Positions 32,850-48,014 of a stretch of DNA of 64,000 nt are shown piece by piece; within the stretch, counting starts at the first letter, position 1; each line of letters begins with the position of its first letter. Below the pieces are notes generated by a model, which was not told the DNA's origin, did not search any database, and saw nothing but the letters and a program-made list of their open reading frames with translations. This DNA comes from Proteobacteria bacterium CG1_02_64_396. Its GTDB lineage: Bacteria > Pseudomonadota > MNWR01 > CG1-02-64-396. Location: positions 5,673 through 69,672 of the forward strand of contig MNWR01000007.1 in assembly GCA_001872725.1 (NCBI GenBank), written 5' to 3'. The translations under genes and the position numbers were made by a program.

Positions 32850-33284
32850 ATGCAAGCATCGCGAAAACTCATGGCAACCTACACGGTCTTGCTGGAACTC
32901 GCCTATCGCGGCGGTACCGATCCGCGGCGGTTGCGCGATTTGCTCGAGGCCAACAATCTTTCGCCCCGCTACTTAGAGCCGGTGGTCCAGGCGCTGGTCA
33001 AAGAGGGGATTCTTGTCAGTCATCGCGGTCCCAAGGGGGGCTACGCCCTGGCTAAGAGCCGTCAAGAGGTCAACCTGGGTCAGGTTGCCCGTTTGGTGGC
33101 TGGGGTCGACCGGGAGGTCGACGAACAAGAGAGCGATCTGTTTGGGGTGGTGAAGGGGATCGTGCAAGAGGCCGAGGTCAAGGCGATGGTTTATCTGGAC
33201 GGTTTAACGCTGCAGGACCTGTGCAATCTGGCCTACCGCAGCGGCATCCACAACCCGTGGGCTATGGGTGATACGCCGATTTAG
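32850..33284 (+). CDS. Rrf2-family transcriptional regulator (CymR/IscR-like, no obvious Cys cluster)
   Basis: An N-terminal winged helix (…YTVLLELAYRGG… LSPRYLEPVVQALVKEGILVSHRGPKGGYALAK…). It lies immediately upstream of the sulfur-assimilation cluster. Confidence 0.75.
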   Translation: MQASRKLMATYTVLLELAYRGGTDPRRLRDLLEANNLSPRYLEPVVQALVKEGILVSHRGPKGGYALAKSRQEVNLGQVARLVAGVDREVDEQESDLFGVVKGIVQEAEVKAMVYLDGLTLQDLCNLAYRSGIHNPWAMGDTPI

Positions 33285-33338
33285 CTAAAAAATATTGTTG
33301 AATAAAAAAACAACAACATATTTTTTACGCAAAACTTT

Positions 33339-33367
33339 TTGACAAACCCATTTTCAATCCGTTTAAT
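33339..33367 (+). promoter_or_regulatory. Consensus-like sigma70 promoter in the AT-rich island upstream of the thrC-like gene, preceded by an imperfect palindrome that is a candidate Rrf2 operator
   Basis: TTGACA (33339–33344), a 17-nt spacer, then TTTAAT (33362–33367). Upstream lies AATATTGTTG…CAACAACATATT (~33296–33328). The 33285–33427 region is strikingly AT-rich in a 63% GC genome. Confidence 0.45.
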
Positions 33368-33427
33368 TCCATCTCGGACAACGCTTGCGCTGTCGGATGG
33401 CCAACGAACCATGCTGTGGAGTAGCGA

Positions 33428-34657
33428 ATGAGTTCTTTCGTGCGGGGGCTGCGTTGCCGTGAGTGTGGCGCCGAATACCCGGTTAATCCGGTCCATGTCT
33501 GCGAGTTCTGTTTTGGTCCCTTGGAGGTCGTTTACGACTATGAGGGGATGAAAGGGAAGATCAGCCGGGAGTCGATTGAATCCCGGCCTCAGACGATGTG
33601 GCGCTATCGCGAACTGTTGCCGGTCGATCAGGACCCGACCGTGGGTCGTCAGGTCGGCTGGACCCCTCTGGTCCACGCCAAGCGGCTGGGCAAGAAGCTG
33701 GGTCTGAACCACCTCTACATCAAATTCGACGGGATCTGCTATCCGACCCTGTCGTTCAAGGATCGGGTGGTTTCGGTGGCGCTCTCCAAAGCGGTTGAGT
33801 TCGGTTTCGACACCGTCGCCTGCGCCTCAACCGGCAACCTGGCCAACTCGGTGGCGGCCAACGCCGCCGCCTCGGGGCTGAAGTCCTACGTCTTCATCCC
33901 CCACGATCTGGAGCAGGGCAAGGTCCTTGGCTCGGCGATCTACGGCACCAACATGGTTGGAATCAAGGGGAGCTATGACGAGGTGAACCGGTTGTGCTCC
34001 GAGATCGCTGGCAACTACGGCTGGGGTTTCGTGAACATCAACCTGCGCCCCTTCTACGCCGAAGGGAGCAAGTCGCTGGCTTTTGAGTCGTTCGAGCAGT
34101 TGGGGTGGCGGATTCCCGACCACTTCATCGCCCCGATGGCCTCCGGCAGCCTGCTGACCAAGATCTGGAAGGCGCGCGAAGAGATGATTAAGTTGGGGCT
34201 GACTGCCGACACCCCGATGAAGATGCACGGGGCTCAGGCCGACGGTTGCGGCCCCATCGTCCGCGCCGTCGAGGCGGGAACCGAGCTCATCAAACCGGAG
34301 CGGCCAAGCACCATCGCCAAGTCGCTGGCGATTGGCAATCCGGCCGACGGCTTCTACGCCCAGCGCATCATCCGCGAGTCGGGGGGCGATGGTGCCTTGG
34401 TCAACGACGATGAAATCGTCGAGGCGATGCGCCTGGTCGCCGAAACCGAGGGGCTATTCACCGAGACTGCCGGTGGGGTGACCATCGGCACCTTGGTGAA
34501 GCTGGCCGAGCGGGGTCGCTTCAAACCCGACGAGGTGGTGGTTGTGGCGATCACCGGCAACGGCCTCAAGACCCAAGAGGCGATTGCCGACAAGTTGCAA
34601 AAGCCAACCCTGATCGAGCCCAAGTTGGCCGCGTTCGACGCGATCATGCAGGGTTAA
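33428..34657 (+). CDS. Threonine-synthase-family PLP enzyme with an N-terminal zinc-ribbon (ThrC-like)
   Basis: An N-terminal Cx2C…Cx2C (CRECGAEY…CEFCFGP) and the PLP-lysine motif SFKDRV. The glycine-rich region and overall fold belong to the ThrC family. 409 aa. Confidence 0.8.
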   Translation: MSSFVRGLRCRECGAEYPVNPVHVCEFCFGPLEVVYDYEGMKGKISRESIESRPQTMWRYRELLPVDQDPTVGRQVGWTPLVHAKRLGKKLGLNHLYIKFDGICYPTLSFKDRVVSVALSKAVEFGFDTVACASTGNLANSVAANAAASGLKSYVFIPHDLEQGKVLGSAIYGTNMVGIKGSYDEVNRLCSEIAGNYGWGFVNINLRPFYAEGSKSLAFESFEQLGWRIPDHFIAPMASGSLLTKIWKAREEMIKLGLTADTPMKMHGAQADGCGPIVRAVEAGTELIKPERPSTIAKSLAIGNPADGFYAQRIIRESGGDGALVNDDEIVEAMRLVAETEGLFTETAGGVTIGTLVKLAERGRFKPDEVVVVAITGNGLKTQEAIADKLQKPTLIEPKLAAFDAIMQG

Positions 34658-34726
34658 ATCAACCGACTATTCCAGCCCCAAGGGCTGCTCCCATTGACGA
34701 ACCAAGCATCGAGAAGGAGTACAACC

Positions 34727-35005
34727 ATGGCCGTTTCCGTTCGCATTCCCACCCCCTTGCGCAAGCTGACACAAGACGCCGACACCGTGAGCGGCGAGGG
34801 GGCAACCATCGCCGAGGTTCTGGGCGACCTGAACAATCAGTTCCCCGGCCTGAAAGAGCGTTTGTACGATGAGAGCGGGGCGCTGCGTCGCTTCGTCAAC
34901 GTCTACCTCAACGACGAAGACATCCGTTTCCTCAATGGCGATGCCACCGAGGTCAAGGCGGGTGATGAGCTTTCCATCGTTCCGGCCATCGCGGGCGGGT
35001 GTTGA
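34727..35005 (+). CDS. MoaD/ThiS-like ubiquitin-fold sulfur-carrier protein ending in GG-Cys
   Basis: A 92-aa beta-grasp protein (…VNVYLNDEDIRFLNGDATEVKAGDELSIVPAIAGGC*). ATG 34727 lies 7 nt after AAGGAG. The C-terminus is Gly-Gly followed by one extra Cys. Confidence 0.7.
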   Translation: MAVSVRIPTPLRKLTQDADTVSGEGATIAEVLGDLNNQFPGLKERLYDESGALRRFVNVYLNDEDIRFLNGDATEVKAGDELSIVPAIAGGC

Positions 35006-35039
35006 TCACTCCCGGTAGTACCCGAACGAGGGGACTGAG

Positions 35040-35279
35040 ATGAACAAGAAGATCTACCTAACCTTCCCCCCCGAGCAGATCTCGGAGCCGGTCATCTACA
35101 ACATCGGCCACAAATTCGAGGTGGTGACCAACATCCGCACCGCCTCGATCTCCCCCCAGGTTGGGGTGGTGGGGTTGGAGTTGTCGGGGGAGCCTGACCA
35201 AATCGAGGCGGCCATCGCCTACATCGAGTCCCTGGGCATTTTGGTGGAGCCTATCGAACTCGACGTCATCGAAGGCTGA
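35040..35279 (+). CDS. Standalone NIL-domain (MetN-C-terminal-like, ferredoxin-fold) protein
   Basis: 79 aa with a NIL-like pattern (…EPVIYNI…FEV..NI…[32 protein letters not shown]…). Standalone NIL proteins are known to co-occur with sulfur-carrier-protein pathways. Confidence 0.5.
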
Positions 35280-35307
35280 GTCGCTCACGCATTCATCGGA
35301 GTTCGTC

Positions 35308-36240
35308 ATGAGCCAGATTTACGATTCGATCGTCGACACTGTGGGCAACACCCCCTTGATCCGCCTCAACCGGGTGACCGAGGGGTTGGGGGCCACCGTG
35401 CTCGCCAAGGTGGAGTTCTTCAATCCCCTGGCGTCGGTGAAGGATCGCATCGCTCTGGCGATGATCGAGGCGGCTGAGCGCTCCGGCGATCTCAAGCCGG
35501 GCGGGCTGCTGGTGGAGCCGACCTCCGGCAATACCGGGATCGCGCTCGCTTTTGTGGCAGCGGCCAAGGGTTACCGGTTGATCCTGACCATGCCCGAATC
35601 GATGAGCCAGGAGCGGCGCAAGATGCTGGCGCTGTTGGGGGCCGAACTGGTGCTCACCCCCGCCGCTTTGGGGATGAAGGGCGCGGTCGAGAAGGCCAAA
35701 GAGATCACGGCCCAGACTCCGGGGGCGGTGATGCCCCAGCAGTTCGAGAACGCCGCCAACCCCGCAGCCCACGAGCGCACCACCGCCGAAGAGCTGTGGC
35801 GCGACACCGACGGCAACATCGACGCCCTGGTGGCGGGGGTGGGAACCGGCGGCACCATCACCGGGGTGAGCCGGGTGATCAAAACCCGCCGCGAGGGTTT
35901 TCAGGCCATTGCGGTGGAGCCCGCCGATTCGCCGGTGCTCGAAGGGGGTGCTCCGGGGCCGCACAAGATTCAGGGGATCGGCGCCGGATTCGTGCCGGGT
36001 GTGTTGCAGCGCGATCTGATCGACGAGGTCTTGCCGATCACCAACGACGAGGCCTTCGCCATGGCGCGAAGGATGGCGCGTGAGGAGGGTATTCCGTGCG
36101 GAATCTCCAGCGGAGCGGCGGTCGCCGCAGCGCTGAAGGTGGCCGCCCGGGACTCCATGGCGGGCAAAACCATCGTGGTGATTATTCCCAGCTTTGCCGA
36201 ACGGTATCTTTCCACCGACCTCTTCGCAGGCTTGGCCTGA
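35308..36240 (+). CDS. cysK: Cysteine synthase / O-acetylserine sulfhydrylase family (CysK/CysM-like)
   Basis: The PLP-lysine motif (…[22 protein letters not shown]…) and GTGGT (…[13 protein letters not shown]…). The true start is ATG 35308; the ORF-track 35161 is an upstream extension. Confidence 0.88.
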
Positions 36241-36273
36241 CGGTCGGGGCTTCAAACGAAAGTCATAAAAAAA

Positions 36274-37083
36274 ATGAACTTCACCGAAGAGCAAATCGAG
36301 CGCTACTCGCGCCACATCATCCTTCCCGAGATCGGCGGCCACGGTCAGGCCAAGCTGCTGGGGGCCAAGGTTTTCATGATCGGCGCCGGCGGCCTGGGCT
36401 CCCCGGTCGGGCTCTATCTGGCGGCTGCCGGGGTTGGCACCCTGGGAATTGCCGATGCCGACCACGTCGACCTGTCGAACCTGCAACGGCAAATTGCCCA
36501 CCGCACCGACACCGTCGGGGTCGATAAGGTCGAGTCGATCAAGCGGACCATCAACGCCATCAATCCCGATGTGAACGTGGTGACCTACCCCGAACGCATC
36601 ACCGCCGACAACATCCTGTCGATCATCCGCGACTACGACATCGTGGTGGACGGCTGTGACAACTTCCCGACCCGGTTTTTGGTCAACGACGCCTGCTTCT
36701 TCGAAAAGAAGACCCTGGTCTCGGGGGCGATCTTCCGTTGGGATGGTCAGGTGACCACCTTCCGTCCTCACCAGGACGAAAACGGCCCCTGTTACCGCTG
36801 TCTCTACCCTGAGCCCCCCCCTCCTGGGCTGGTCCCCTCGTGTTCGGAGGCTGGGATTTTGGGCGCCATCGCCGGGATCATCGGCACCATCCAGGCGGCC
36901 GAGGTGGTCAAAGAGATTCTTGGGGTTGGCCGCTCGCTGTCGGGCAGCTTGATGATTTACGACGCCTTGGATGCCCACTGGCGCAAGGTGAAGGTCCGCA
37001 AGGATCCCCATTGCCCCCTGTGTGGTCCCAACCCCACGGTGCGTGAGCTCATCACCTACGACCAGGCCTGTACCATCGGTTAA
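36274..37083 (+). CDS. MoeB/ThiF-family E1-like adenylyltransferase
   Basis: The ThiF nucleotide-binding motif (…KVFMIGAGGLGSPVGLYLAAAGVG…) and C-terminal CxxC pairs (CYRC… CPLC). Confidence 0.85.
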   Translation: MNFTEEQIERYSRHIILPEIGGHGQAKLLGAKVFMIGAGGLGSPVGLYLAAAGVGTLGIADADHVDLSNLQRQIAHRTDTVGVDKVESIKRTINAINPDVNVVTYPERITADNILSIIRDYDIVVDGCDNFPTRFLVNDACFFEKKTLVSGAIFRWDGQVTTFRPHQDENGPCYRCLYPEPPPPGLVPSCSEAGILGAIAGIIGTIQAAEVVKEILGVGRSLSGSLMIYDALDAHWRKVKVRKDPHCPLCGPNPTVRELITYDQACTIG

Positions 37084-37171
37084 ACAGTCGAATCCATACC
37101 GCAAAGGCGGGGCGCCTCGTGCGCCCCTCTTTTGTACCCTAGCCATAAGTAAATTTTAGAGGCCAATTAAA

Positions 37172-37975
37172 ATGATCTCTTCAAATAAGCTACACAACGA
37201 CTTCGAGCAGTTCGTCGCCCACCTCAACGCTCAGGAGGGGGAGATCGTCTTCGCCTCCTCCCTGGGGGCCGAGGATGTGGTCATCCACCACCTGCTGGCT
37301 CAGGTGAAACGGCCGGTGCGCATCATCACCCTAGATACCGGGCGGGTCTTCCCCGAGGTCTATTCCCTGATCCCCAAGCTCGAAGAGAAGTACAACCAGA
37401 AGATCGAGATCGTCTTCCCCGAGCGCAGCGATGTGGACGAATTTGTCGGCAAGTACGGCATCAACGGCTTCTACCATTCGGTCGAGGCCCGCAAGGGGTG
37501 CTGCCAGGCTCGCAAAATCAAGCCGCTGCGCCGCGCCCTGGCCGGAGCCGGGGCTTGGATCACCGGGGTGCGTCGGGAGCAGAACGACCACCGCAGCACC
37601 ATCGAGATGAAAGAGGACGACACCGTCTTCGGGCTGACCAAGTTCAACCCGCTCATCAATTGGAGCCAGGACGACGTTTGGGACTTCATTCGCGCTCAAG
37701 GCATCCCCTACAACCCGATGCACGACCGCGGTTTCCCCTCCATCGGCTGCCAGCCCTGCACCCGGGCGGTGGGGGAGGACGAGGATCCCCGCGCCGGGCG
37801 TTGGTGGTGGGAGTGCCGCAATTCGGGCAAGGCCGAGTGCGGTCTGCATTGGAACCCCGAGACCGGCAAGGCGGAGGCGACCTGCAAGGATCGCCCCCAT
37901 GCCGCCGCAGCTAAGAAGGAGGAAAAACCCTCCTTGACCAAGCTGCAACCGGTCCATTTCGGCGCCCATTGGTAA
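37172..37975 (+). CDS. cysH: Adenylylsulfate/phosphoadenylylsulfate reductase, Fe-S type (CysH)
   Basis: A PAPS-reductase fold (…ITLDTGRVFPE…) with a CC pair and a C-terminal CxxC (CCQARKIKP… SIGCQPCT…), which is typical of APS reductases. Confidence 0.85.
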   Translation: MISSNKLHNDFEQFVAHLNAQEGEIVFASSLGAEDVVIHHLLAQVKRPVRIITLDTGRVFPEVYSLIPKLEEKYNQKIEIVFPERSDVDEFVGKYGINGFYHSVEARKGCCQARKIKPLRRALAGAGAWITGVRREQNDHRSTIEMKEDDTVFGLTKFNPLINWSQDDVWDFIRAQGIPYNPMHDRGFPSIGCQPCTRAVGEDEDPRAGRWWWECRNSGKAECGLHWNPETGKAEATCKDRPHAAAAKKEEKPSLTKLQPVHFGAHW

Positions 37976-38045
37976 ACACGGTCGGGGTTTGTGTCTGACA
38001 TGCCCGATGCAGGCCCCCACCGCTTTCCCTCTCCAGGAGGTTGAA

Positions 38046-40289
38046 ATGACAACACCCGTCTGGGTCGATCGCGACGAGATCGACCGACTTGAACATACCC
38101 GCGTTGCTTCTCTGAACGGCAACGTCAGCGACGCGGTTTGGAACACCGAACGTCTGAAGCAGGGGATCTACGGTCAGCGTCAACCCGACGTGCACATGGT
38201 TCGCGCCAAACTGCCGGGGGGATCGATCTCCCCTCGGCAGCTGCGCGGTCTGGCCGATATCGTCGAGGCCGAGGCGATTGATGAGCCGCTGCTCCACGTC
38301 ACCACCCGGCAGGATCTGCAATTCCACTACATCCGCCCCGAACGGCTCGCCCCGGTGCTGCACAAAATGGGCGACTTGGGGCTGATTTCGCGCGAGGCCT
38401 GCGGCCACACGGTGCGCAATGTGACCACCTGCGCCCTGGCGGGGCGTTGCCCCCGTACTCGGGTCGACGGCCACGAGGTGGTCAGCGCCGTCATCCTGCA
38501 TTTTTTGCGGCACCCCCTGGGGCAGAACCTGCCGCGCAAATTCAAGATCGCGGTGGCGGGGTGTGAGTCGGACTGCGCCCTGGCCCCGATCAACGATGTT
38601 GGCCTGACCCCCACCGAGGATGGCTTCTTCCTGGCCGCTGCGGGTGGTTTGGGGCAGGCCCCCAAACCGGCGATCCCGCTGGGAAGCCTGCGCGACGAGG
38701 AGGTCTACCCCGCCATCGAGGCGCTGCTGCGCATTCACCATCGCCACTCCGACCGGGAGCGCCGAGCCCGCGCCCGGCTCAAATTTGTGGTCGAGTCGAT
38801 GGGGAGTGAGGCCTTCCAGGAGCTTTACTGGGAGGAGCGGGAGAACGTCGCCCCCTTCCATAGCGCCCAAGGGGGCGAAAGCTGGGCGCGTCGTACCCCC
38901 GATTTAACTGCGCCGGTCCCAGGTGTCAGCGGTTGGACCAAGCAGATCGACGGCAAGTGGGCTCGCGGCGTGGCGCTGCACAAGGGCGATCTCACACCCG
39001 CCCAGGCGCGGCAACTGGCCGACTTGGTCAGCGGTTTGGGGCTCGACGAGATTGTCCTGACCCAGGCTCAGAATCTGGTGATTGTCGATGTACCCGAAGC
39101 GCACAAAGGGGTGATCGACGAGGGGGTATTCGGCATTGAGGCTTTGATCCCCGCCGACATCGGGGTTTGCCCCGGTGCGGCGACCTGCCGTTTGGGCATC
39201 ACCCGCTCCCGCGATCTGGCCGATTCCGTCGCCGATCTGCCCTTGGGCGATCTCAAGGTGCGGATCTCCGGTTGTGCCAACGGCTGCGGCCACCACGCCA
39301 TCGCCGACTTCGGTCTGCATGGCTTGGCCCGCAAGCGCGACGGCCATTCGATTCCTGCCTACCAGATTCACGTGGGCGGTTCGGCCAGCGGCACCATGGT
39401 TCCGGGTCGCTCCTTGCCCCTGGTGGCGGCGGTTCATGCCCGCGAGGCGCTCAGCCGGTTGGTGGCCGCGTACAACATTGAGCGGCGCGAGGGGGAGTCG
39501 GTGCGGGGTTGGGCCGAACGGATTGGCCCCGAAACCCTTGAAGGTTTGGTGGCCGAGTTCGCCCCCGGCGAGGGGGAGCTCGAAGGGTTGCTCTTCGACT
39601 GGGGCTCCTTCGACCGCTTCTCGACCAAAGAGGTGGGCAAGGGGGAGTGCGCCGCCGCCCTGGTTTCGATGATCGGCGCCCACATGGGCGAGGCGATCTA
39701 CGAGTTGGGCCATGCCCAAACCCTGGCCGCCAAGGGGAGCGTCGCCGCCATCGAATTCGCCCATCGCGGCGTGGTGGCGGCGGTCCGCGCCCTGCTCACC
39801 TTGCGCGGTGAGGAGGAGGGCTCGTGGCAGTTCGGCGAGGAGGAGGCGCTGGCCGCCTTCGAGCGGGGACTGCAAAACACCGAGATGGTGCGCATCCACT
39901 TCACCCAGCTTTATGCCGCGCTGCGCCGCGCCCATCGGGGCGAGGTCGAACCCTTCGTGGCGATTGCCGCCAAGGTGATCGAGACGGTGCGCCGTGCGGT
40001 CGAAAGTCGCGACGGCAGCGACAATCTGCAACCCCCACCGCCCCCCAAGGTGGAGGCGGTCGCCCCCGAGACGGTGCTCGATCTCAAGGGGGTCGGCTGT
40101 CCGATCAACTTCGTTAAAACCAAGCTGCGGCTGGAGATGATGCCGGCCGCCAGCAAACTCACCGTCCTGCTCGACGACGGCCCCCCCATCGAAAACGTCC
40201 CCCTGAGTTTGGAGGGGGAGGGGCACGCCATCGAGGTCAAAGAGCCGTTTGAGGATCGTTGGAAAATCGTGGTGCGTAAGAAGGGGTAA
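38046..40289 (+). CDS. sir: Ferredoxin-dependent sulfite reductase (NirA/Sir hemoprotein family) fused to a C-terminal TusA-like sulfurtransferase domain
   Basis: The siroheme/4Fe-4S cysteine motif (…RISGCANGCGHHAIAD…) and duplicated NIR_SIR ferredoxin-like halves. The last ~75 aa (…LDLKGVGCPINFVKTKLRLEMM…LLDDGPPIENVP…GHAIEV…) match TusA/SirA. ATG 38046 is preceded by AGGAGG. Confidence 0.82.
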   Translation: MTTPVWVDRDEIDRLEHTRVASLNGNVSDAVWNTERLKQGIYGQRQPDVHMVRAKLPGGSISPRQLRGLADIVEAEAIDEPLLHVTTRQDLQFHYIRPERLAPVLHKMGDLGLISREACGHTVRNVTTCALAGRCPRTRVDGHEVVSAVILHFLRHPLGQNLPRKFKIAVAGCESDCALAPINDVGLTPTEDGFFLAAAGGLGQAPKPAIPLGSLRDEEVYPAIEALLRIHHRHSDRERRARARLKFVVESMGSEAFQELYWEERENVAPFHSAQGGESWARRTPDLTAPVPGVSGWTKQIDGKWARGVALHKGDLTPAQARQLADLVSGLGLDEIVLTQAQNLVIVDVPEAHKGVIDEGVFGIEALIPADIGVCPGAATCRLGITRSRDLADSVADLPLGDLKVRISGCANGCGHHAIADFGLHGLARKRDGHSIPAYQIHVGGSASGTMVPGRSLPLVAAVHAREALSRLVAAYNIERREGESVRGWAERIGPETLEGLVAEFAPGEGELEGLLFDWGSFDRFSTKEVGKGECAAALVSMIGAHMGEAIYELGHAQTLAAKGSVAAIEFAHRGVVAAVRALLTLRGEEEGSWQFGEEEALAAFERGLQNTEMVRIHFTQLYAALRRAHRGEVEPFVAIAAKVIETVRRAVESRDGSDNLQPPPPPKVEAVAPETVLDLKGVGCPINFVKTKLRLEMMPAASKLTVLLDDGPPIENVPLSLEGEGHAIEVKEPFEDRWKIVVRKKG

Positions 40290-40400
40290 TTCCGGTCATA
40301 CGGGGGGGCGGGAGCGCCGATCCAGCCTACTCGGTCCCGGAATGACGGCGCCATGTTTGCGACCTAAACGCCTGTATGGCCCAGAAAACAGAGGAACACC

Positions 40401-41570
40401 ATGCAATTGATTCCCCCCCACGGCGGACGCCTGATCAACCGTTGGGCCGACCTTGAAGATGTGCAGGTCCAGGCGATCCTGGGCCGACCCAATCCACTGA
40501 AGATCGAACTCGACGACGTGCGGCTGTGCGATCTGGAGTGTCTGGCCGACGGCGCCCTCTCCCCCCTCGAAGGGTTTATGGGGGAGAAGGAATACCATCA
40601 GGTGCTCGATGTGATGGAGCTGCCCGAGGGGCTGGTTTGGCCCTTCCCCATCGTTTTGCCGGTGACCCAGGCGGTGGCGAAGCAAACCGAGCCGGGGCAG
40701 AAGGTGCTTTTGACCGGCGCCGGGCAAACCCTGGGTTGGATCGAAGTGAGCGGGTACTTCAAACGCAACCCCACCAAGGAGGCCAACCGGATCTACGGCA
40801 CCCTGGAGGAGGATCACCCCGGCGTGAAGCGGGTGATGTCGGAGCCGGAGTACGCCCTGGCGGGATCGGTGACGGTGGTCCGTCTGCCCGAGCGACCCTT
40901 CCCGGAGCAACGACTCACTCCGGTCCAGACGCGGGCCGAGTTCGTCAAGCGGGGCTGGAAAACGGTGGTCGCTTTTCAGACCCGCAATCCGATCCATCGG
41001 GCCCACGAATACATCACCAAGTGCGCCCTTGAGGTGGTCGACGGGTTGCTCATCCACCCACTGGTGGGGACAACCAAAAGCGACGACATCCCGGCCGATG
41101 TGCGCATGAAGTGCTACGAGCGGTTGATGCGCGATTACTACCCAGCCGACCGCACCATGCTCTCGGTTTTTCCGGCGGCGATGCGTTACGCCGGGCCGCG
41201 TGAGGCGCTCTTCCACGCCATCGTGCGCAAGAACTACGGCTGTACCCACTTGATCGTGGGACGCGACCACGCCGGGGTGGGCGACTACTACCATCCGTTT
41301 GCCGCCCATGCGATTTTTGACCGTTTCGAGCCGGGCGACATCGGTATCATCCCGCTGCGTTTCGACGCCACCTTCTATTGCAAGCAGTGTGCAGCGATGG
41401 CGTCGTACAAAACCTGCCCCCACGATGGGGAGCACCATGTCGCCCTGTCGGGGACCAAGGTGCGCAAGATGCTCGGCGAGGGGGTCCACCCCCCGGCGGA
41501 GTTCTCCCGCCCCGAGGTGGCGGCGATTTTGGTCGAGTCCTACCGGCAACGGTTCGATCCCGGGATTTGA
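40401..41570 (+). CDS. sat: Sulfate adenylyltransferase (ATP sulfurylase)
   Basis: The QTRNPIHRAHE motif and the GRDHAG(V)G motif. 389 aa. Confidence 0.88.
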   Translation: MQLIPPHGGRLINRWADLEDVQVQAILGRPNPLKIELDDVRLCDLECLADGALSPLEGFMGEKEYHQVLDVMELPEGLVWPFPIVLPVTQAVAKQTEPGQKVLLTGAGQTLGWIEVSGYFKRNPTKEANRIYGTLEEDHPGVKRVMSEPEYALAGSVTVVRLPERPFPEQRLTPVQTRAEFVKRGWKTVVAFQTRNPIHRAHEYITKCALEVVDGLLIHPLVGTTKSDDIPADVRMKCYERLMRDYYPADRTMLSVFPAAMRYAGPREALFHAIVRKNYGCTHLIVGRDHAGVGDYYHPFAAHAIFDRFEPGDIGIIPLRFDATFYCKQCAAMASYKTCPHDGEHHVALSGTKVRKMLGEGVHPPAEFSRPEVAAILVESYRQRFDPGI

Positions 41571-41596
41571 GGAATTGCTCCTGGTGACGCAGACAA

Positions 41597-41629
41597 GGCC
41601 GGCCGCAAGGTCGGCTTTTTTTTGGGAGA
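41597..41629 (+). terminator. Intrinsic terminator after sat
   Basis: AAGGCCGGCC-GCAA-GGTCGGC followed by TTTTTTTT. Confidence 0.5.
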
Positions 41630-41635
41630 AATGCC

Positions 41636-42910
41636 ATGAGCAAAAATCATGGTTTGTTCATCGCGGCGTTGATCGCCGTCGTCCTCTGGTTCGCCCAGCC
41701 CTGGATCGCTCCGGCCTGGAGCGCAACCTCGTGGCATGCCCTGGTCATCGCCCTGTTCGTCATGGCGTTGTGGGTGGGGCAGTTTTTACCGTTGCCGGTC
41801 ACCGGTCTGCTCGCGGTCACCCTGATCGTGGTGGCCGGGGTTCTCCCCGCCAAGGCCGCCTTTGCCGCGTTTGCCCAGCCGACCCTGTTTTTCATCATCG
41901 GCGCCCTGGCGCTGGCGGTGGGGGTGGAGGAGAGCGGCCTGGGGCGCACCATCGCCTGCAAGGTCTTCCACGCCGCCAAACCGACGGTGGGGGGGGTGCG
42001 GCGCGCCACCCTATGGGGGAGCGCGGCGCTGGCGCTGGTGATTCCCGAACACGCGGTCGCCGCCGTGGTGATCCCCATGGCGACCCAGATCATCCCCAAG
42101 GGGAGCAAACACCCCAGCATCATCCTGGCCGCCGCTCTGGGGGCGGTGATCGGGGGGATCGTCACCTTCCTGGGGGGCGCCCGGAATATTCTGGCGGTGT
42201 CGATCCTTGAGGAATTCCAGGGGACGGGGATCGCCCACGGCACCTGGATCCTCGACGCCCTGCCGGTGGCGGCCTTGATTCTGCTGCTGGCCGATCTGCT
42301 GCTGACCCGTTTGGAACCGGGTTCGACCCCTTTGACCCTTCCCGAACATTGCCCAACGACTGCGCAGGGAAAACGTATGGCTTGGGTCATGGCCGCCGCG
42401 ATTGCCGCCTGGGCTTTTTGGGGCGAAACGGTGGGGCTGGCCCCCATCGCCCTGGCCGCCACGGTGGCGATGGTGGTCTTCAAGGCGGCCAAGTGGGAGG
42501 CGGTTTCTAAGCATCTGCCCTGGGGGGTGGTGCTGATGTTCGGCGGGGCGCTGGCCATGGGGGGGGCGCTGGCCCAAAGCGGGGCGGCGGCCAACATCGC
42601 CGCCTACACCCCCGATTCGGTGGGTCTTGCCGCCGCCATGTCGATGATTTTGACCCAGGGGATCAGCAACGCCGCCGCCGTGGCGACCTTGCTGCCCATC
42701 CTGTTGCCCGGCTCTTCCGATCCCATCGCCACGACCCTGGCCATCGCCCTGGGTGGAGGGCTCGCCTTCGCCCTGCCGATGGGCGCGCCCGCCATTGCCA
42801 TTGCCTGGGCGACCGGGCAGGTGACGATGGGACAACTGGTGCGCATCGGGGTCACCTTGGGGATCGCCTCGTGGTTCATCCTCATGGGGGCAGCCGCTTG
42901 GTGGTGGTGA
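41636..42910 (+). CDS. Anion permease of the ArsB/NhaD/DASS (SLC13-like) superfamily, putative sulfate transporter
   Basis: A 424-aa polytopic protein with a two-repeat topology. Its position right after sat fits sulfate uptake, but this is inference. Confidence 0.65.
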   Translation: MSKNHGLFIAALIAVVLWFAQPWIAPAWSATSWHALVIALFVMALWVGQFLPLPVTGLLAVTLIVVAGVLPAKAAFAAFAQPTLFFIIGALALAVGVEESGLGRTIACKVFHAAKPTVGGVRRATLWGSAALALVIPEHAVAAVVIPMATQIIPKGSKHPSIILAAALGAVIGGIVTFLGGARNILAVSILEEFQGTGIAHGTWILDALPVAALILLLADLLLTRLEPGSTPLTLPEHCPTTAQGKRMAWVMAAAIAAWAFWGETVGLAPIALAATVAMVVFKAAKWEAVSKHLPWGVVLMFGGALAMGGALAQSGAAANIAAYTPDSVGLAAAMSMILTQGISNAAAVATLLPILLPGSSDPIATTLAIALGGGLAFALPMGAPAIAIAWATGQVTMGQLVRIGVTLGIASWFILMGAAAWWW

Positions 42911-42995: not shown

Positions 42996-44045
42996 ATGGA
43001 CCTCTACCGTCCCCGCGATACCTCGGGCCTGAAGCCCATCCTCTACTTCCACGCCATGGCCCACCTCGGCATCGAGGGGTTGGTGATCGTCGAACCGAGC
43101 GACCGTTTCGTCAGCGTCGGCTTCTTCGACGACACCGCCAAGATCGTCGATCTCGACCGCTGCCACGCCCTGGGTTTGCCGGTGATGCGCCGCGAGGTGG
43201 GGGGCGGGGCGGTGCTCCTCGGTCCCGGCCAGGTCTTCTACCACCTGGTGATGCAGCGGGGCAGCCACGGCATTCCGGTGCAGGTCGACGAGGCCTACAA
43301 GGTGCTCTCCATCCCCCCCATCGAGACCTATGCCCACTTCGGGGTCGAGGCGCGCTACCGCCCGATCAACGACCTCATCACCCCCGAGGGGCGCAAGATT
43401 TCGGGGCAGGGGGCGGCCGACATCGGCAAATGCTTCGTCTTCGTTGGCTCGATCCTGCGCCATTTCGACGTCGCGACGATGACCCAGGTGCTGCGGGTCC
43501 CCGACGAGAAATTCCGCGACAAAATCTTCAAAACCATGGATGAAAACATGAGCTGGCTGGAGCGGGAGAGTCAGGCCCGCCCCACCTCGCGGGAGGTGGG
43601 CGACGTGCTGGCCGCCTCTTTTGGCCGATTGCTTGGTCCGCTGCATGAAAAGGTGCTCCCCCCCGAGGCGATCACACTGGCCGAGCAACTGGGGGGGGAA
43701 TTCACCAGCGACGAGTTTTTGTTCGAAGAGACCCCCCGCCGCCACGAGGCGATCAAGATTCGGGAGGGGGTCTATCTGCGCCAGGGGATGCACAAGGCGC
43801 GGGGGGGATTGATCTGGGCCGAGGTCGAGGTGGCGGAGGATCGCATCGCGGCGCTCAAGATCGGTGGCGACTTCACCTTCATCCCCAAGGGGGACTTTGC
43901 GCCGCTGCAAGACCACCTGATCGGCGCCCCCTTCGAGGTGGAAACGGTGGCCAGCAGCATCGCCCGTTTCATGGCCGAACGTGCCGTCGAAACGCCGGGG
44001 GTGCTTCCCTGCGATTTTGCCCAAGCGATTGTGGGGCAAGGATGA
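42996..44045 (+). CDS. Lipoate-protein ligase family protein (BPL/LplA/LipB catalytic-domain fold)
   Basis: A mixed LplA/LipB-like core (…RREVGGGAVLLGPGQVFYH…) and an accessory C-terminal domain. 349 aa. Confidence 0.7.
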   Translation: MDLYRPRDTSGLKPILYFHAMAHLGIEGLVIVEPSDRFVSVGFFDDTAKIVDLDRCHALGLPVMRREVGGGAVLLGPGQVFYHLVMQRGSHGIPVQVDEAYKVLSIPPIETYAHFGVEARYRPINDLITPEGRKISGQGAADIGKCFVFVGSILRHFDVATMTQVLRVPDEKFRDKIFKTMDENMSWLERESQARPTSREVGDVLAASFGRLLGPLHEKVLPPEAITLAEQLGGEFTSDEFLFEETPRRHEAIKIREGVYLRQGMHKARGGLIWAEVEVAEDRIAALKIGGDFTFIPKGDFAPLQDHLIGAPFEVETVASSIARFMAERAVETPGVLPCDFAQAIVGQG

Positions 44046-44578
44046 TCGGCAAGCTGATCTTCATCGCGCTGCTGCTGGTGTTTGGGGCGGCGATGTTCAT
44101 GGCGGGGATGTGGGCTCCAGAGACGGTGCGGGGACCGGTCTCGTCGGGACTGAGCAAGGTGTTGCCCGCCACCGCGTTGCCGGGGGCTCGCCCGAGCGGT
44201 CCGAACCTCGTTACCTCAGGCACTCCGAGTGGGCAAGAGGCCACCACCGATCAAGAAACCCCACCCCCTCGCTACGATACCCTGCTCCCTCCGGTGCCAC
44301 CCCCAGAACCCGGAGATTATGTCATCCAGCTGGGGCTCTACGCTTCGGGCGAAGCGGCGGACGCGTTGGCGGCCAAGGCGGCGAGGTTGGGGCTGGAGAC
44401 GGCCCAGGTCGAGGTGGTTGATCGCCACGCAGAGCACTGGATCGTGTTGATCGCCGGTAGCTTCAAGGGCCCTGCCGAGGCTCAGGGGATGCAGGTCGAA
44501 TGGGCCCAGATGCTGAATTTGCCGCCGCCGCTACCGCTCCTGTTGCTCCCTCCTCCACCCCCTCCGGCAGGCTCCTGA
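44042..44578 (+). CDS. SPOR-domain (peptidoglycan-binding) protein with an N-terminal TM helix and a Pro-rich tail
   Basis: A TM helix (MIGKLIFIALLLVFGAAMFMAG) and a SPOR-like region (…YVIQLGLYASGEAADALAAKAARLGL… HWIVLIAGSFKGPAEAQ…). It overlaps the upstream gene by 4 nt. Confidence 0.65.
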   Translation: MIGKLIFIALLLVFGAAMFMAGMWAPETVRGPVSSGLSKVLPATALPGARPSGPNLVTSGTPSGQEATTDQETPPPRYDTLLPPVPPPEPGDYVIQLGLYASGEAADALAAKAARLGLETAQVEVVDRHAEHWIVLIAGSFKGPAEAQGMQVEWAQMLNLPPPLPLLLLPPPPPPAGS

Positions 44579-47938: not shown

Positions 47939-48014
47939 GGGGCCGTAGCTCAGTTGGTAGAGCGTCTCGTTCGCAATGAGAAGGTCAGGGGTTCGATTCC
48001 CCTCGGCTCCACCA
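47939..48014 (+). tRNA. tRNA-Ala (anticodon CGC)
   Basis: A cloverleaf with the G3:U70 Ala identity pair. The anticodon loop is TTCGCAA, the T-loop GGTTCGATTCC, and the 3' CCA is encoded. Confidence 0.9.

Follow-up and report, generated by a model that had tools for sequence, protein, structure and literature searches.

In a 64,000-nucleotide stretch of contig MNWR01000007.1 (hereafter the window), from the metagenome-assembled 'Proteobacteria bacterium CG1_02_64_396', we find a gene whose product is an assimilatory sulfite reductase (Sir) joined, in one real and single protein, to a sulfur-carrier domain of the TusA type. This fusion, which we call Sir-TusA, is neither rare nor an artefact; it is widespread and already visible in public annotation. 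We read the C-terminal part of the protein, which comprises a conserved loop, a helical bundle and the TusA domain, as a built-in sulfur relay or sulfurtransferase that feeds carrier proteins, and put the probability of this composite reading at about 0.5. Sir-TusA would then probably pass newly reduced sulfur to carrier proteins and not only release free sulfide. The gene and its parts are the following, in coordinates of the window.

38046-40289, + strand: Sir-TusA gene, an uninterrupted open reading frame (ORF) of 747 codons plus stop
38046-39560, + strand: siroheme/[4Fe-4S] assimilatory sulfite/nitrite-reductase core, aa 1-505, with two NIR_SIR_ferr + NIR_SIR repeats (Pfam)
38307-38546, + strand: anion-binding basic residues R88, R124, K165 and K167 (TTRQD..., VRN and PRKFK motifs), assigned by conservation
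39168-39287, + strand: cluster/siroheme ligands C375-x5-C381 ... C410-x3-C414, invariant in both alignments described below (A1 and A2)
39597-39653, + strand: conserved loop after the core, aa 518-536, D518-W...F525...G533-E534-C535, assigned by conservation
39654-40004, + strand: five-helix HEPN-like bundle, aa 537-653, with helices predicted by AlphaFold2 at 537-562, 567-586, 598-609, 613-629 and 634-653
40005-40070, + strand: Pro-rich tether, aa 654-675, predicted to be disordered (pLDDT below 50 at 657-672)
40071-40286, + strand: TusA-family domain (Pfam), aa 676-747, with the candidate sulfur-carrying Cys685 at 40098-40100 in the motif C-P-I-N-F-V-K-T-K

An AGGAGG ribosome-binding site lies 8 nt 5' of the Sir-TusA ATG, and the identical protein is present in NCBI as a hypothetical protein of the same metagenome-assembled organism. 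In Pfam searches the protein matches NIR_SIR (7e-44) and NIR_SIR_ferr (3e-28), each in two stretches, and TusA (PF01206) at aa 677-745 with 53.8 bits (gathering cut-off 28.6), the alignment spanning positions 2-70 of the 70 in the profile. The original prediction, made before any database search, had described a NirA/Sir core with a CANGCGHH motif, a Pro-rich linker and a C-terminal TusA domain. The motifs it quoted are all there (C410-ANG-C414-GHH, the Pro-rich DNLQPPPPPKVEAVAPE, LDLKGVGC685PINFV, LLDDGPPIENVP and GHAIEV) and Pfam agrees with it; its length of 748 aa is off by one, as the ORF codes for 747 aa and a stop. It had also named what would speak against a fusion, and in each respect the outcome is favorable: the C-terminal region passes the TusA profile hidden Markov model (HMM), the Cys is invariant in the orthologues, and there is no frameshift. 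Two separate genes or a frameshift are ruled out, since the ORF is continuous and the same architecture occurs in 62/62 diverse representatives and 81/81 related loci.

The prediction overlooked the ~170 aa between the core and the TusA domain, which constitute a separate conserved module containing another invariant Cys. We assessed conservation in two alignments, one of the Zetaproteobacteria clade and the window protein (A1) and one of 62 diverse relatives with 25-40% identity to the query (A2), and on the 62 diverse homologues we built an AlphaFold2 model of the full-length protein, with a mean predicted local distance difference test (pLDDT) score of 89.2 and a predicted TM-score (pTM) of 0.88. 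Because this pTM exceeds what the core alone, with 68% of the residues, could give, the model suggests that the helical bundle and the TusA domain are docked on the core. In the loop that follows the core, D518 and C535 are invariant in A2, and F525 and E534 nearly so. Model confidence is lowest in this GEC loop (pLDDT ~59), which, together with Cys535, is probably flexible. The bundle passes the Pfam cut-off for HEPN (PF05168) in 4/62 relatives and in a Nitrospira copy (26.2 bits against 22); in the window protein the Pfam search gave no match to the HEPN profile at E<=0.1, and the Foldseek comparison with the HEPN protein 4nqf, with a target TM-score (TMt) of 0.61-0.63 but an E-value of 0.15, shows a weak resemblance. 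We treat the bundle as a HEPN-like spacer or docking scaffold and do not assign it to HEPN itself. The tether behind it differs in length and sequence among homologues.

The TusA domain looks functional by its alignment, its conservation and its modelled fold. In a pairwise alignment Cys685 falls exactly on Cys19 of E. coli TusA, the Cys of LRCPEP and the persulfide-carrying residue of that protein. C685, P686 and N688 are invariant in the 62 relatives, as is C535 in the loop, and the modelled domain, a two-layer alpha/beta sandwich with the order beta-alpha-beta-alpha-beta-beta, superimposes on 1dcj, 3lvj_C and 3lvk_B with TMt 0.81-0.85 (Foldseek). Both the CPxN motif and a [GA]EC motif, 147-184 residues upstream of the TusA Cys, are present in 82/82 copies, these being the 81 related loci and the window. 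The signature of the family is C-P-x-N-[FY]-V-K-x-K and the canonical CPxP does not occur in it, whereas 5/5 aligned sequences of solved TusA-family structures have CPxP; judged by sequence, the CPxN-type TusA domain is a distinct subfamily. Carriage of a persulfide, or of a thiosulfonate, on Cys685 is the candidate function that we infer for it.

Some TusA-like proteins with the CPxN signature stand alone. Four of them (P0232, P0249, P0259, P0262) lie on short contigs beside genes for a secreted protein of unknown function, homocysteine S-methyltransferase, an Fe-S assembly protein and a tetrapyrrole methylase. On two unrelated contigs (L082, 3538-4672; L085, 2-1091) the gene for a stand-alone protein of 94-103 aa with the signature CPxN[FY]VKTK follows a gene for a ~240-aa secreted protein without a Pfam match.

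The reductase core is modelled with pLDDT mostly above 90. Its nearest solved relative is M. tuberculosis NirA, 1zj8 (phmmer 1e-33; Foldseek 1e-31, TMt 0.74, ~25% identity), and the structures of maize SiR (5h8v, 5h8y) and E. coli CysI (1aop) match its fold as well. The Cx5C...Cx3C cluster motif is kept in 75/75 full-length copies, and among the 62 diverse relatives R124, R164, K165 and K167 are invariant and R88 nearly so; R88, R124, K165 and K167 are presumably the equivalents of R83, R153, K215 and K217 in E. coli CysI. The window protein falls in no curated NCBIfam equivalog, the scores remaining below the cut-offs for the NirA family (NF007126, 195.5 against 523), sir (TIGR02042, 100 against 731) and CysI (TIGR02041, 96 against 757). 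Sulfite rather than nitrite is the substrate predicted from the neighbours, namely CysH, Sat or CysDN and a sulfate permease, in the window and the 81 related loci.

In the N-terminal pseudo-repeat of the core (38400-38576), C119, C129, C135, C173 and C177 are invariant in A1 and not in A2. The arrangement C129-x5-C135 ... C173-x3-C177 copies the spacing of the motif in the C-terminal repeat, hinting at a second [4Fe-4S] cluster, and C119 occupies the alignment position of Cys161 in M. tuberculosis NirA, the residue that forms the Tyr-Cys crosslink of that enzyme.

In an exhaustive, profile-free search with only the last 243 aa of the window protein as query, 278 clusters at 50% identity match the C-terminal module with E<=1e-10, and in the best 150 of these matches the alignment always ends at the protein C-terminus and mostly covers the whole module. 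Full-length Sir-TusA proteins have 730-900 aa; shorter entries resemble fragments. NIR_SIR, NIR_SIR_ferr and TusA occur together in all 62 full-length diverse representatives, and the same three-Pfam architecture, with ~100% query coverage, is found in all of 119 listed homologues except one aberrant protein of 1002 aa. The latter (P0031, from a gammaproteobacterial metagenome-assembled genome) repeats ~250 aa of its Sir core internally, has a scrambled TusA end and looks like an assembly or frameshift artefact; it shows that the GEC/CPxN module is also present in a gammaproteobacterial genome of this kind. A scan of one genome per species for a signature peptide gave at least 600 matches, 596 of them confirmed, and the fusion is thus carried by at least 596 species genomes. 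The dominant carriers are Nitrospira and other Nitrospirota, followed by Nitrospinota, Zetaproteobacteria, Bacteroidales, Calditrichota and Fibrobacterota; Ignavibacteria, Omnitrophota, Poribacteria, Desulfobacterota, Spirochaetales and Margulisbacteria are among the others. The window protein itself is divergent, with at most 41% identity to its nearest relatives and a shorter bundle. In public annotation by the pipeline PGAP, the label 'sulfurtransferase TusA family protein' is given to many members, while others are named 'sulfite reductase'.

Two relatives extend the fusion at the other end: P0167 (902 aa) and P0206 (864 aa) begin with a Prok-JAB protease domain, followed by Sir, bundle and TusA. 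JAB proteases of the Mec+/HcyD type trim ThiS-like carriers and release amino-acid adducts from them, and these triple fusions therefore tie the reductase module physically to a carrier system. A further protein (P0246, 841 aa) joins porphobilinogen deaminase to Sir-TusA, and its first Sir half-domain appears reduced.

The gene contexts of the 81 related loci are those of sulfate assimilation everywhere. CysH, the reductase of adenosine 5'-phosphosulfate (APS), is encoded in 63/81 loci, along with CysD/CysN or Sat, and in 51/81 the gene immediately upstream of Sir-TusA encodes an Rrf2 protein. Within this frame we distinguish three types. In type A, comprising ~50 loci of Nitrospirota, Rrf2, Sir-TusA and CysH are followed in this order by an optional DsrE-like gene (22 loci), a gene of the Glycos_transf_3 family (47 loci), CysD and CysNC. 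Since proteins of the DsrE family are established partners of TusA in sulfur transfer, the surroundings in Nitrospirota suggest a relay as well, with a different acceptor. Type B comprises six loci of Zetaproteobacteria, which share with the window the order MetM-like/ThiS/NIL/CysK/ThiF/Sir-TusA, and loci of Omnitrophota and Poribacteria, where these genes surround Sir-TusA but are arranged differently. Type C, found in Fibrobacterota, Calditrichota, Margulisbacteria and Desulfopila, has the order (CysM/K), ThiF, JAB protease, Sir-TusA, CysH; ThiF and JAB are present in other arrangements in an Ignavibacteria locus and in one unclassified locus (L036).

Across these types, at least eight lineages have an E1 adenylyltransferase without a rhodanese domain beside Sir-TusA; ThiS, a JAB protease and sulfhydrylases dependent on pyridoxal phosphate (PLP) may or may not accompany it. 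The E1 ORFs have 265-320 aa in 16/16 related loci with an E1, which is too short to include a rhodanese domain. A JAB protease adjoins Sir-TusA in eight loci besides the two triple fusions. ThiS was detected with an HMM of the SAMP1-like window type only, so that ThiS genes in loci of the ThiF-JAB type may be missed.

Two genes of the Nitrospirota loci (in Nitrospira sp. DJ at L029, 11562-13084) are not expected in sulfate assimilation. The DsrE/DsrF-like protein has 139 aa and a Cys in the context S-V-C-K-D-S, and the Glycos_transf_3-family protein, which is TrpD- or nucleoside-phosphorylase-like, is encoded with the DsrE-like protein between cysH and cysD.

In the window, Sir-TusA belongs to a cluster (32850-42910) whose genes all lie on the + strand with gaps of 25-143 nt. 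Its other members are the following.

32850-33284, + strand: Rrf2-family regulator (CymR/IscR-like) at the head of the cluster (Pfam Rrf2; NCBIfam scores below cut-offs)
33428-34657, + strand: ThrC-like PLP enzyme with an N-terminal zinc ribbon (Pfam PALP and a Zn-ribbon match)
34727-35005, + strand: ThiS/MoaD/SAMP-like sulfur carrier with the C-terminus ...AGG-C (Pfam ThiS; NCBIfam SAMP1, 62.7 bits against 60)
35040-35279, + strand: NIL-domain protein of 79 aa (Pfam NIL)
35308-36240, + strand: CysK-type cysteine synthase (NCBIfam cysK, 457 bits against 351)
36274-37083, + strand: ThiF/MoeB/UbaA-type E1 adenylyltransferase of 269 aa (Pfam ThiF only, aa 11-248; NCBIfam MoeB/UbaA-like)
37172-37975, + strand: APS reductase CysH of the thioredoxin-dependent type, with Fe-S motif and ECGLH (NCBIfam TIGR02055, 249 bits against 235)
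40401-41570, + strand: ATP sulfurylase, Sat (Pfam, NCBIfam)
41636-42910, + strand: permease resembling Na+/sulfate symporters (Pfam CitMHS/Na_sulph_symp)

The MoeB/ThiF-like and ThiS/MoaD-like genes that had been predicted upstream of Sir-TusA on the same strand are thus both in place, and neither Pfam nor the sequence gives a rhodanese domain in the window E1. The carrier should need C-terminal trimming, since it has one extra Cys after its Gly-Gly; its orthologues in Zetaproteobacteria terminate in GG, GGSR, GGNA or GGAL. The ThrC-like enzyme passes the cut-off of TIGR00260 thrC (267 bits against 167.1) and misses those of other threonine-synthase equivalogs (e.g. NF006050, 282.6 against 303). 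Synteny of its gene with ThiS extends to Zetaproteobacteria, Omnitrophota and Poribacteria, and we consider the enzyme a candidate homocysteine synthase of the thiocarboxylate-dependent MetM type; the MetM/MetO pathway is a route from O-phosphohomoserine, summarised in the GapMind preprint (10.1101/2024.10.14.618325). The stand-alone NIL gene (another copy is at L001, 1998-2237) recurs between thiS and cysK in clusters of Zetaproteobacteria and is present in the Omnitrophota cluster too. Elsewhere, NIL domains are associated with the methionine transporter component MetN and with the DUF39/NIL-ferredoxin pathway to homocysteine (PMC5764234). A permease of the sulfate type is also conserved downstream in the loci of Zetaproteobacteria. 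Neither a thioredoxin or glutaredoxin gene nor a cysteine desulfurase is among the annotated genes of the cluster.

GC-rich hairpins followed by T-runs lie on the + strand in the gaps between thiF and cysH (37109-37127) and between sat and the permease gene (41595-41618). They may be terminators or attenuators that split the cluster into the units metM-thiS-NIL-cysK-thiF and cysH-sir-sat; the overall count of terminator-like hairpins in the window is no higher than chance. A promoter scan of the window found nothing, and an Rfam scan gave no riboswitch and a single tRNA, tRNA-Ala(CGC) at 47939-48014. A 617-aa ORF antisense to cysK and thiF (35293-37146, - strand) has no Pfam match and is almost certainly spurious, as is typical of GC-rich DNA. 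Immediately downstream of the sulfur cluster (42996-44578) follow a gene for an LplA-like lipoate-protein ligase and a SPOR-domain gene.

In the relay that we propose, sulfate would be processed along the APS pathway by Sat, then the APS reductase CysH and then the Sir of the ferredoxin type, and the sulfur reduced at the siroheme would be taken up as a persulfide of Cys685. The original prediction spoke of direct capture of the reduced sulfur, perhaps with hand-off to the MoeB/MoaD-like carrier system encoded upstream. As an account of persulfide formation, capture of H2S is chemically incomplete: sulfide alone cannot turn a thiol into a persulfide, for which an oxidant or a disulfide is needed. 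For this reason, and because two Cys residues are invariant, we propose a disulfide cycle. By the simplest route, HS- would open a disulfide between Cys535 and Cys685 to yield Cys685-S-SH. This persulfide would attack the adenylated C-terminus of ThiS (ThiS-CO-AMP) on the rhodanese-less E1, giving an acyl-disulfide, which Cys535 would resolve, freeing ThiS-COS- and re-forming the disulfide. Such a cycle would be redox-neutral and would parallel the chemistries of rhodanese/E1 and of ThiI. The TusA domain would take the role of the rhodanese domain in E1s of the MoeZ/MOCS3 type, ThiS-COSH would feed the ThrC-like homocysteine synthase of the MetM type, and CysK may take free sulfide. In other lineages the module would hand its sulfur to different acceptors, e.g. 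the DsrE-like proteins of Nitrospirota. A precedent exists in E. coli, where TusA contributes sulfur to the thiocarboxylation of MoaD with a MoeB that lacks rhodanese.

The connection that the original prediction drew between sulfite reduction and a ThiS/MoeB carrier was a reasonable interpretation and gains comparative support from the E1 neighbours in at least eight lineages, the JAB genes between E1 and Sir-TusA and the two JAB fusions. Several observations weigh against the relay to ThiS or narrow it. Within 8-10 kb of Sir-TusA neither ThiS nor E1 was found in the ~50 loci of Nitrospirota; because this largest clade with the fusion has a DsrE-like gene instead, ThiS is not a universal acceptor and hand-off to it cannot be the sole role of the module. 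The CysK of the window scores as an ordinary user of free sulfide, and free sulfide is therefore still released, or the relay is only partial. The CPxN motif in place of CPxP means that the chemistry may differ from that of the TusA proteins studied so far. No JAB/Mov34 protease of the Mec/HcyD type was found among the six-frame ORFs of the 64-kb window with phmmer and two JAB seeds. Finally, the hairpin at 37109-37127 possibly separates the ThiS/E1 unit from cysH-sir-sat.

Of the ways in which the two Cys residues could act otherwise, we considered a mechanism like that of DsrC, in which a Cys of the module attacks partly reduced sulfur still bound to the siroheme, so that the product is a protein persulfide (S0, after 4 electrons) and no free sulfide arises. 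Two invariant Cys on flexible elements beside a sulfite-reductase core, the analogy to DsrAB/DsrC, with DsrAB structures as distant fold relatives of the core (Foldseek ranks 37-44), and the persulfide acceptors encoded nearby, E1/ThiS and DsrE-like proteins, are consistent with it. DsrC, however, carries its two Cys ~10 residues apart on one C-terminal arm, while those of Sir-TusA are ~150 residues apart in different domains: a DsrC fold with paired Cys is not what we find, but a TusA domain and a helical bundle with the Cys 147-184 residues apart. Moreover, the core has the full assimilatory residue set that supports six-electron reduction in CysI/SiR, and CysK in the cluster implies free sulfide. 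We regard this interception as unlikely. More unlikely still is that the module serves as a dithiol partner of APS reductase, with Cys685 and Cys535 resolving the S-sulfocysteine of CysH in place of thioredoxin and the sulfite being set free directly at the active site of Sir, i.e. channelled; sulfide may then reopen the disulfide. CysH is indeed the immediate neighbour in most loci (63/81) and in all lineages, including those without ThiS/E1, the window CysH is of the thioredoxin-dependent type (ECGLH) with no thioredoxin or glutaredoxin gene in the annotated cluster, two Cys are invariant, and plant APS reductases have a fused redoxin domain. Yet adjacency of cysH and cysI is common in ordinary operons with unfused Sir and hence counts for little, no TusA protein is known to reduce disulfides, and both the JAB-Sir-TusA fusions and the linkage to E1 would be left unexplained. 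These two ideas can be combined into a closed, protein-bound route from APS to sulfur amino acids, in which sulfite reduction does not end in free sulfide and the Cys535/Cys685 module acts like an assimilatory DsrC and redoxin in one. The module would be oxidised to its disulfide while freeing sulfite from APS reductase, or would intercept the siroheme-bound S0 intermediate, and the TusA persulfide would be handed directly to ThiS~AMP/E1 (in Zetaproteobacteria, the Fibrobacterota-Calditrichota group and others) or to DsrE-like proteins (in Nitrospira). We offer this route as a speculative possibility, on the doubtful side.

The TusA domain might instead act on the substrate side, binding thiosulfate or a thiosulfonate, like YeeD/TsuB and archaeal TusA, and feeding the sulfite or sulfane moiety to the reductase. 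YeeD (TsuB), a part of the YeeE-YeeD thiosulfate-uptake complex, is among the top Foldseek matches of the module, and the invariant Cys would suit such a carrier; these matches are, however, generic to the TusA fold (E ~3e-3, query TM-score 0.28), the clusters examined contain transporters of the sulfate type and none like YeeE, and again the linkage to E1 and JAB is not explained, which makes this function very unlikely. It is rather improbable, too, that the domain has no part in sulfur transfer and is a structural, docking (e.g. for recruitment of ferredoxin or a partner) or regulatory appendage. The replacement of CPxP by CPxN, the non-transfer roles of some TusA-fold proteins and the absence of ThiS/E1 near the Nitrospirota loci would fit an appendage, but the TusA active-site Cys and the second Cys are absolutely conserved over sequences of 25-40% identity from many phyla, and linkage to relay partners (E1, JAB, DsrE-like) is found repeatedly. 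That the core is an assimilatory nitrite reductase (NirA) in place of a sulfite reductase is extremely improbable. In NCBIfam it scores best with the models for 'NirA family protein' and ferredoxin-nitrite reductase, each time well short of the cut-off, and its nearest solved relative carries the name NirA, but the M. tuberculosis 'NirA' is in fact a sulfite reductase, the neighbours belong to sulfate assimilation in 81/81 loci and no nitrate or nitrite assimilation gene is among those identified.

In textbook sulfate assimilation, sulfite reductase releases free, toxic sulfide, and the in-vitro work on Wolinella reportedly used free sulfide as well. How ThiS-type carriers obtain their sulfur where the E1 lacks rhodanese is a question that has stood since a prediction of 2006, discussed below. 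A reductase with an attached candidate transferase, together with the JAB-Sir-TusA fusions, offers a concrete and purifiable system in which to study the channelling of protein persulfides. Since Nitrospira, Nitrospina and Zetaproteobacteria have this family as their standard sulfite reductase, its mode of action matters for how major nitrifiers and iron oxidisers handle sulfur, and the closed protein-bound route, if true, would concern globally important members of both. For annotation it matters that many of these reductases of ~780 aa are labelled by PGAP merely as TusA-family sulfurtransferases. New, to our reading of the literature, are the three-part module of GEC loop, HEPN-like bundle and CPxN-type TusA with two invariant Cys, the JAB-Sir-TusA triple fusions and the status of the family as standard Sir in the three groups named. 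A full-text literature search brought up no description or characterisation of a Sir-TusA fusion, in agreement with the original prediction, which knew of no characterised case; an earlier mention cannot be excluded. A genomics paper on Nitrospinota lists Sir and tusA separately, the fusion going unnoticed.

Known sulfite reductases share the core and lack the module. M. tuberculosis NirA/SirA (1zj8), maize SiR (5h8v) and E. coli CysI (1aop) have in common with Sir-TusA the two-repeat NIR_SIR fold, the Cx5C...Cx3C ligands, the anion-binding residues and the sulfate-assimilation operon, whereas the 240-aa C-terminal module with GEC loop, HEPN-like bundle and TusA, all three present in Sir-TusA, is absent from the solved and curated Sir enzymes. 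A distant fold relative of the core is DsrAB, which with DsrC likewise pairs a siroheme sulfite reductase with a two-Cys partner that takes up substrate-derived sulfur. Sir-TusA differs from this pair in its monomeric core of the assimilatory type, in having TusA and a bundle in place of the DsrC fold, and in a wholly different Cys spacing.

With E. coli TusA, which operates in the chain from IscS via TusA to TusBCD (DsrEFH), the TusA domain shares the fold, the position of the active-site Cys and partners of the DsrE family and of the E1/MoaD type. Unlike E. coli TusA, it has CPxN[FY]VKxK in place of CPxP and is tethered to a reductase instead of being loaded by a cysteine desulfurase. E1s of the MoeZ/MOCS3/Uba4 type, and the MetM/MetO/MoeZ/Mec system of Streptomyces, resemble the window system in that a domain with a Cys persulfide supplies an adenylated ThiS-like carrier, whose thiocarboxylate the ThrC-like MetM uses. 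There the persulfide domain is a rhodanese on the E1; in the window the E1 has no such domain, and the candidate for this role is a TusA fold on the enzyme that produces the sulfide. The Wolinella succinogenes pathway is said to have been reconstituted by Krishnamoorthy and Begley in 2011, with Sir-derived sulfide converting HcyS-AMP to the thiocarboxylate.

A close parallel comes from operons of ThiS, E1, JAB and sulfite reductase, which, according to Iyer, Burroughs and Aravind (2006), 'always contain a SirA', the former name for the TusA family, together with an E1 that 'always lacks' rhodanese, SirA being predicted to replace it (PMC1779556). The idea of a relay is therefore not new: Sir-TusA is the fused form of what was predicted in 2006 for a separate SirA/TusA protein. 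Their type 4e operons (ThiS/MoaD, E1, JAB, SirA, sulfite reductase, 3'-phosphoadenosine 5'-phosphosulfate reductase and ATP sulfurylase), a class that includes the HcyS/HcyF/HcyD/MetY/Sir pathway of W. succinogenes, have the same clustered functions as the window, a rhodanese-less E1 and a TusA/SirA module, and for both the predicted flow is from sulfate over sulfite and sulfide to the ThiS-thiocarboxylate and a sulfur amino acid. The partner PLP enzyme of type 4e is O-acetylhomoserine sulfhydrylase, where the window has a ThrC-like enzyme of the MetM type and CysK, with no JAB found. The same study reported ThiS at the C-terminus of sulfite reductase in some actinobacteria (Nocardioides, Acidothermus; PMC1779556); in these Sir-ThiS fusions a relay component likewise occupies the Sir C-terminus, but the partner is the carrier ThiS and not a transferase of the TusA type. 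In type 4e, SirA was described as a separate protein, while in the window the TusA domain is fused to the reductase through a conserved bundle and is accompanied by a second Cys.

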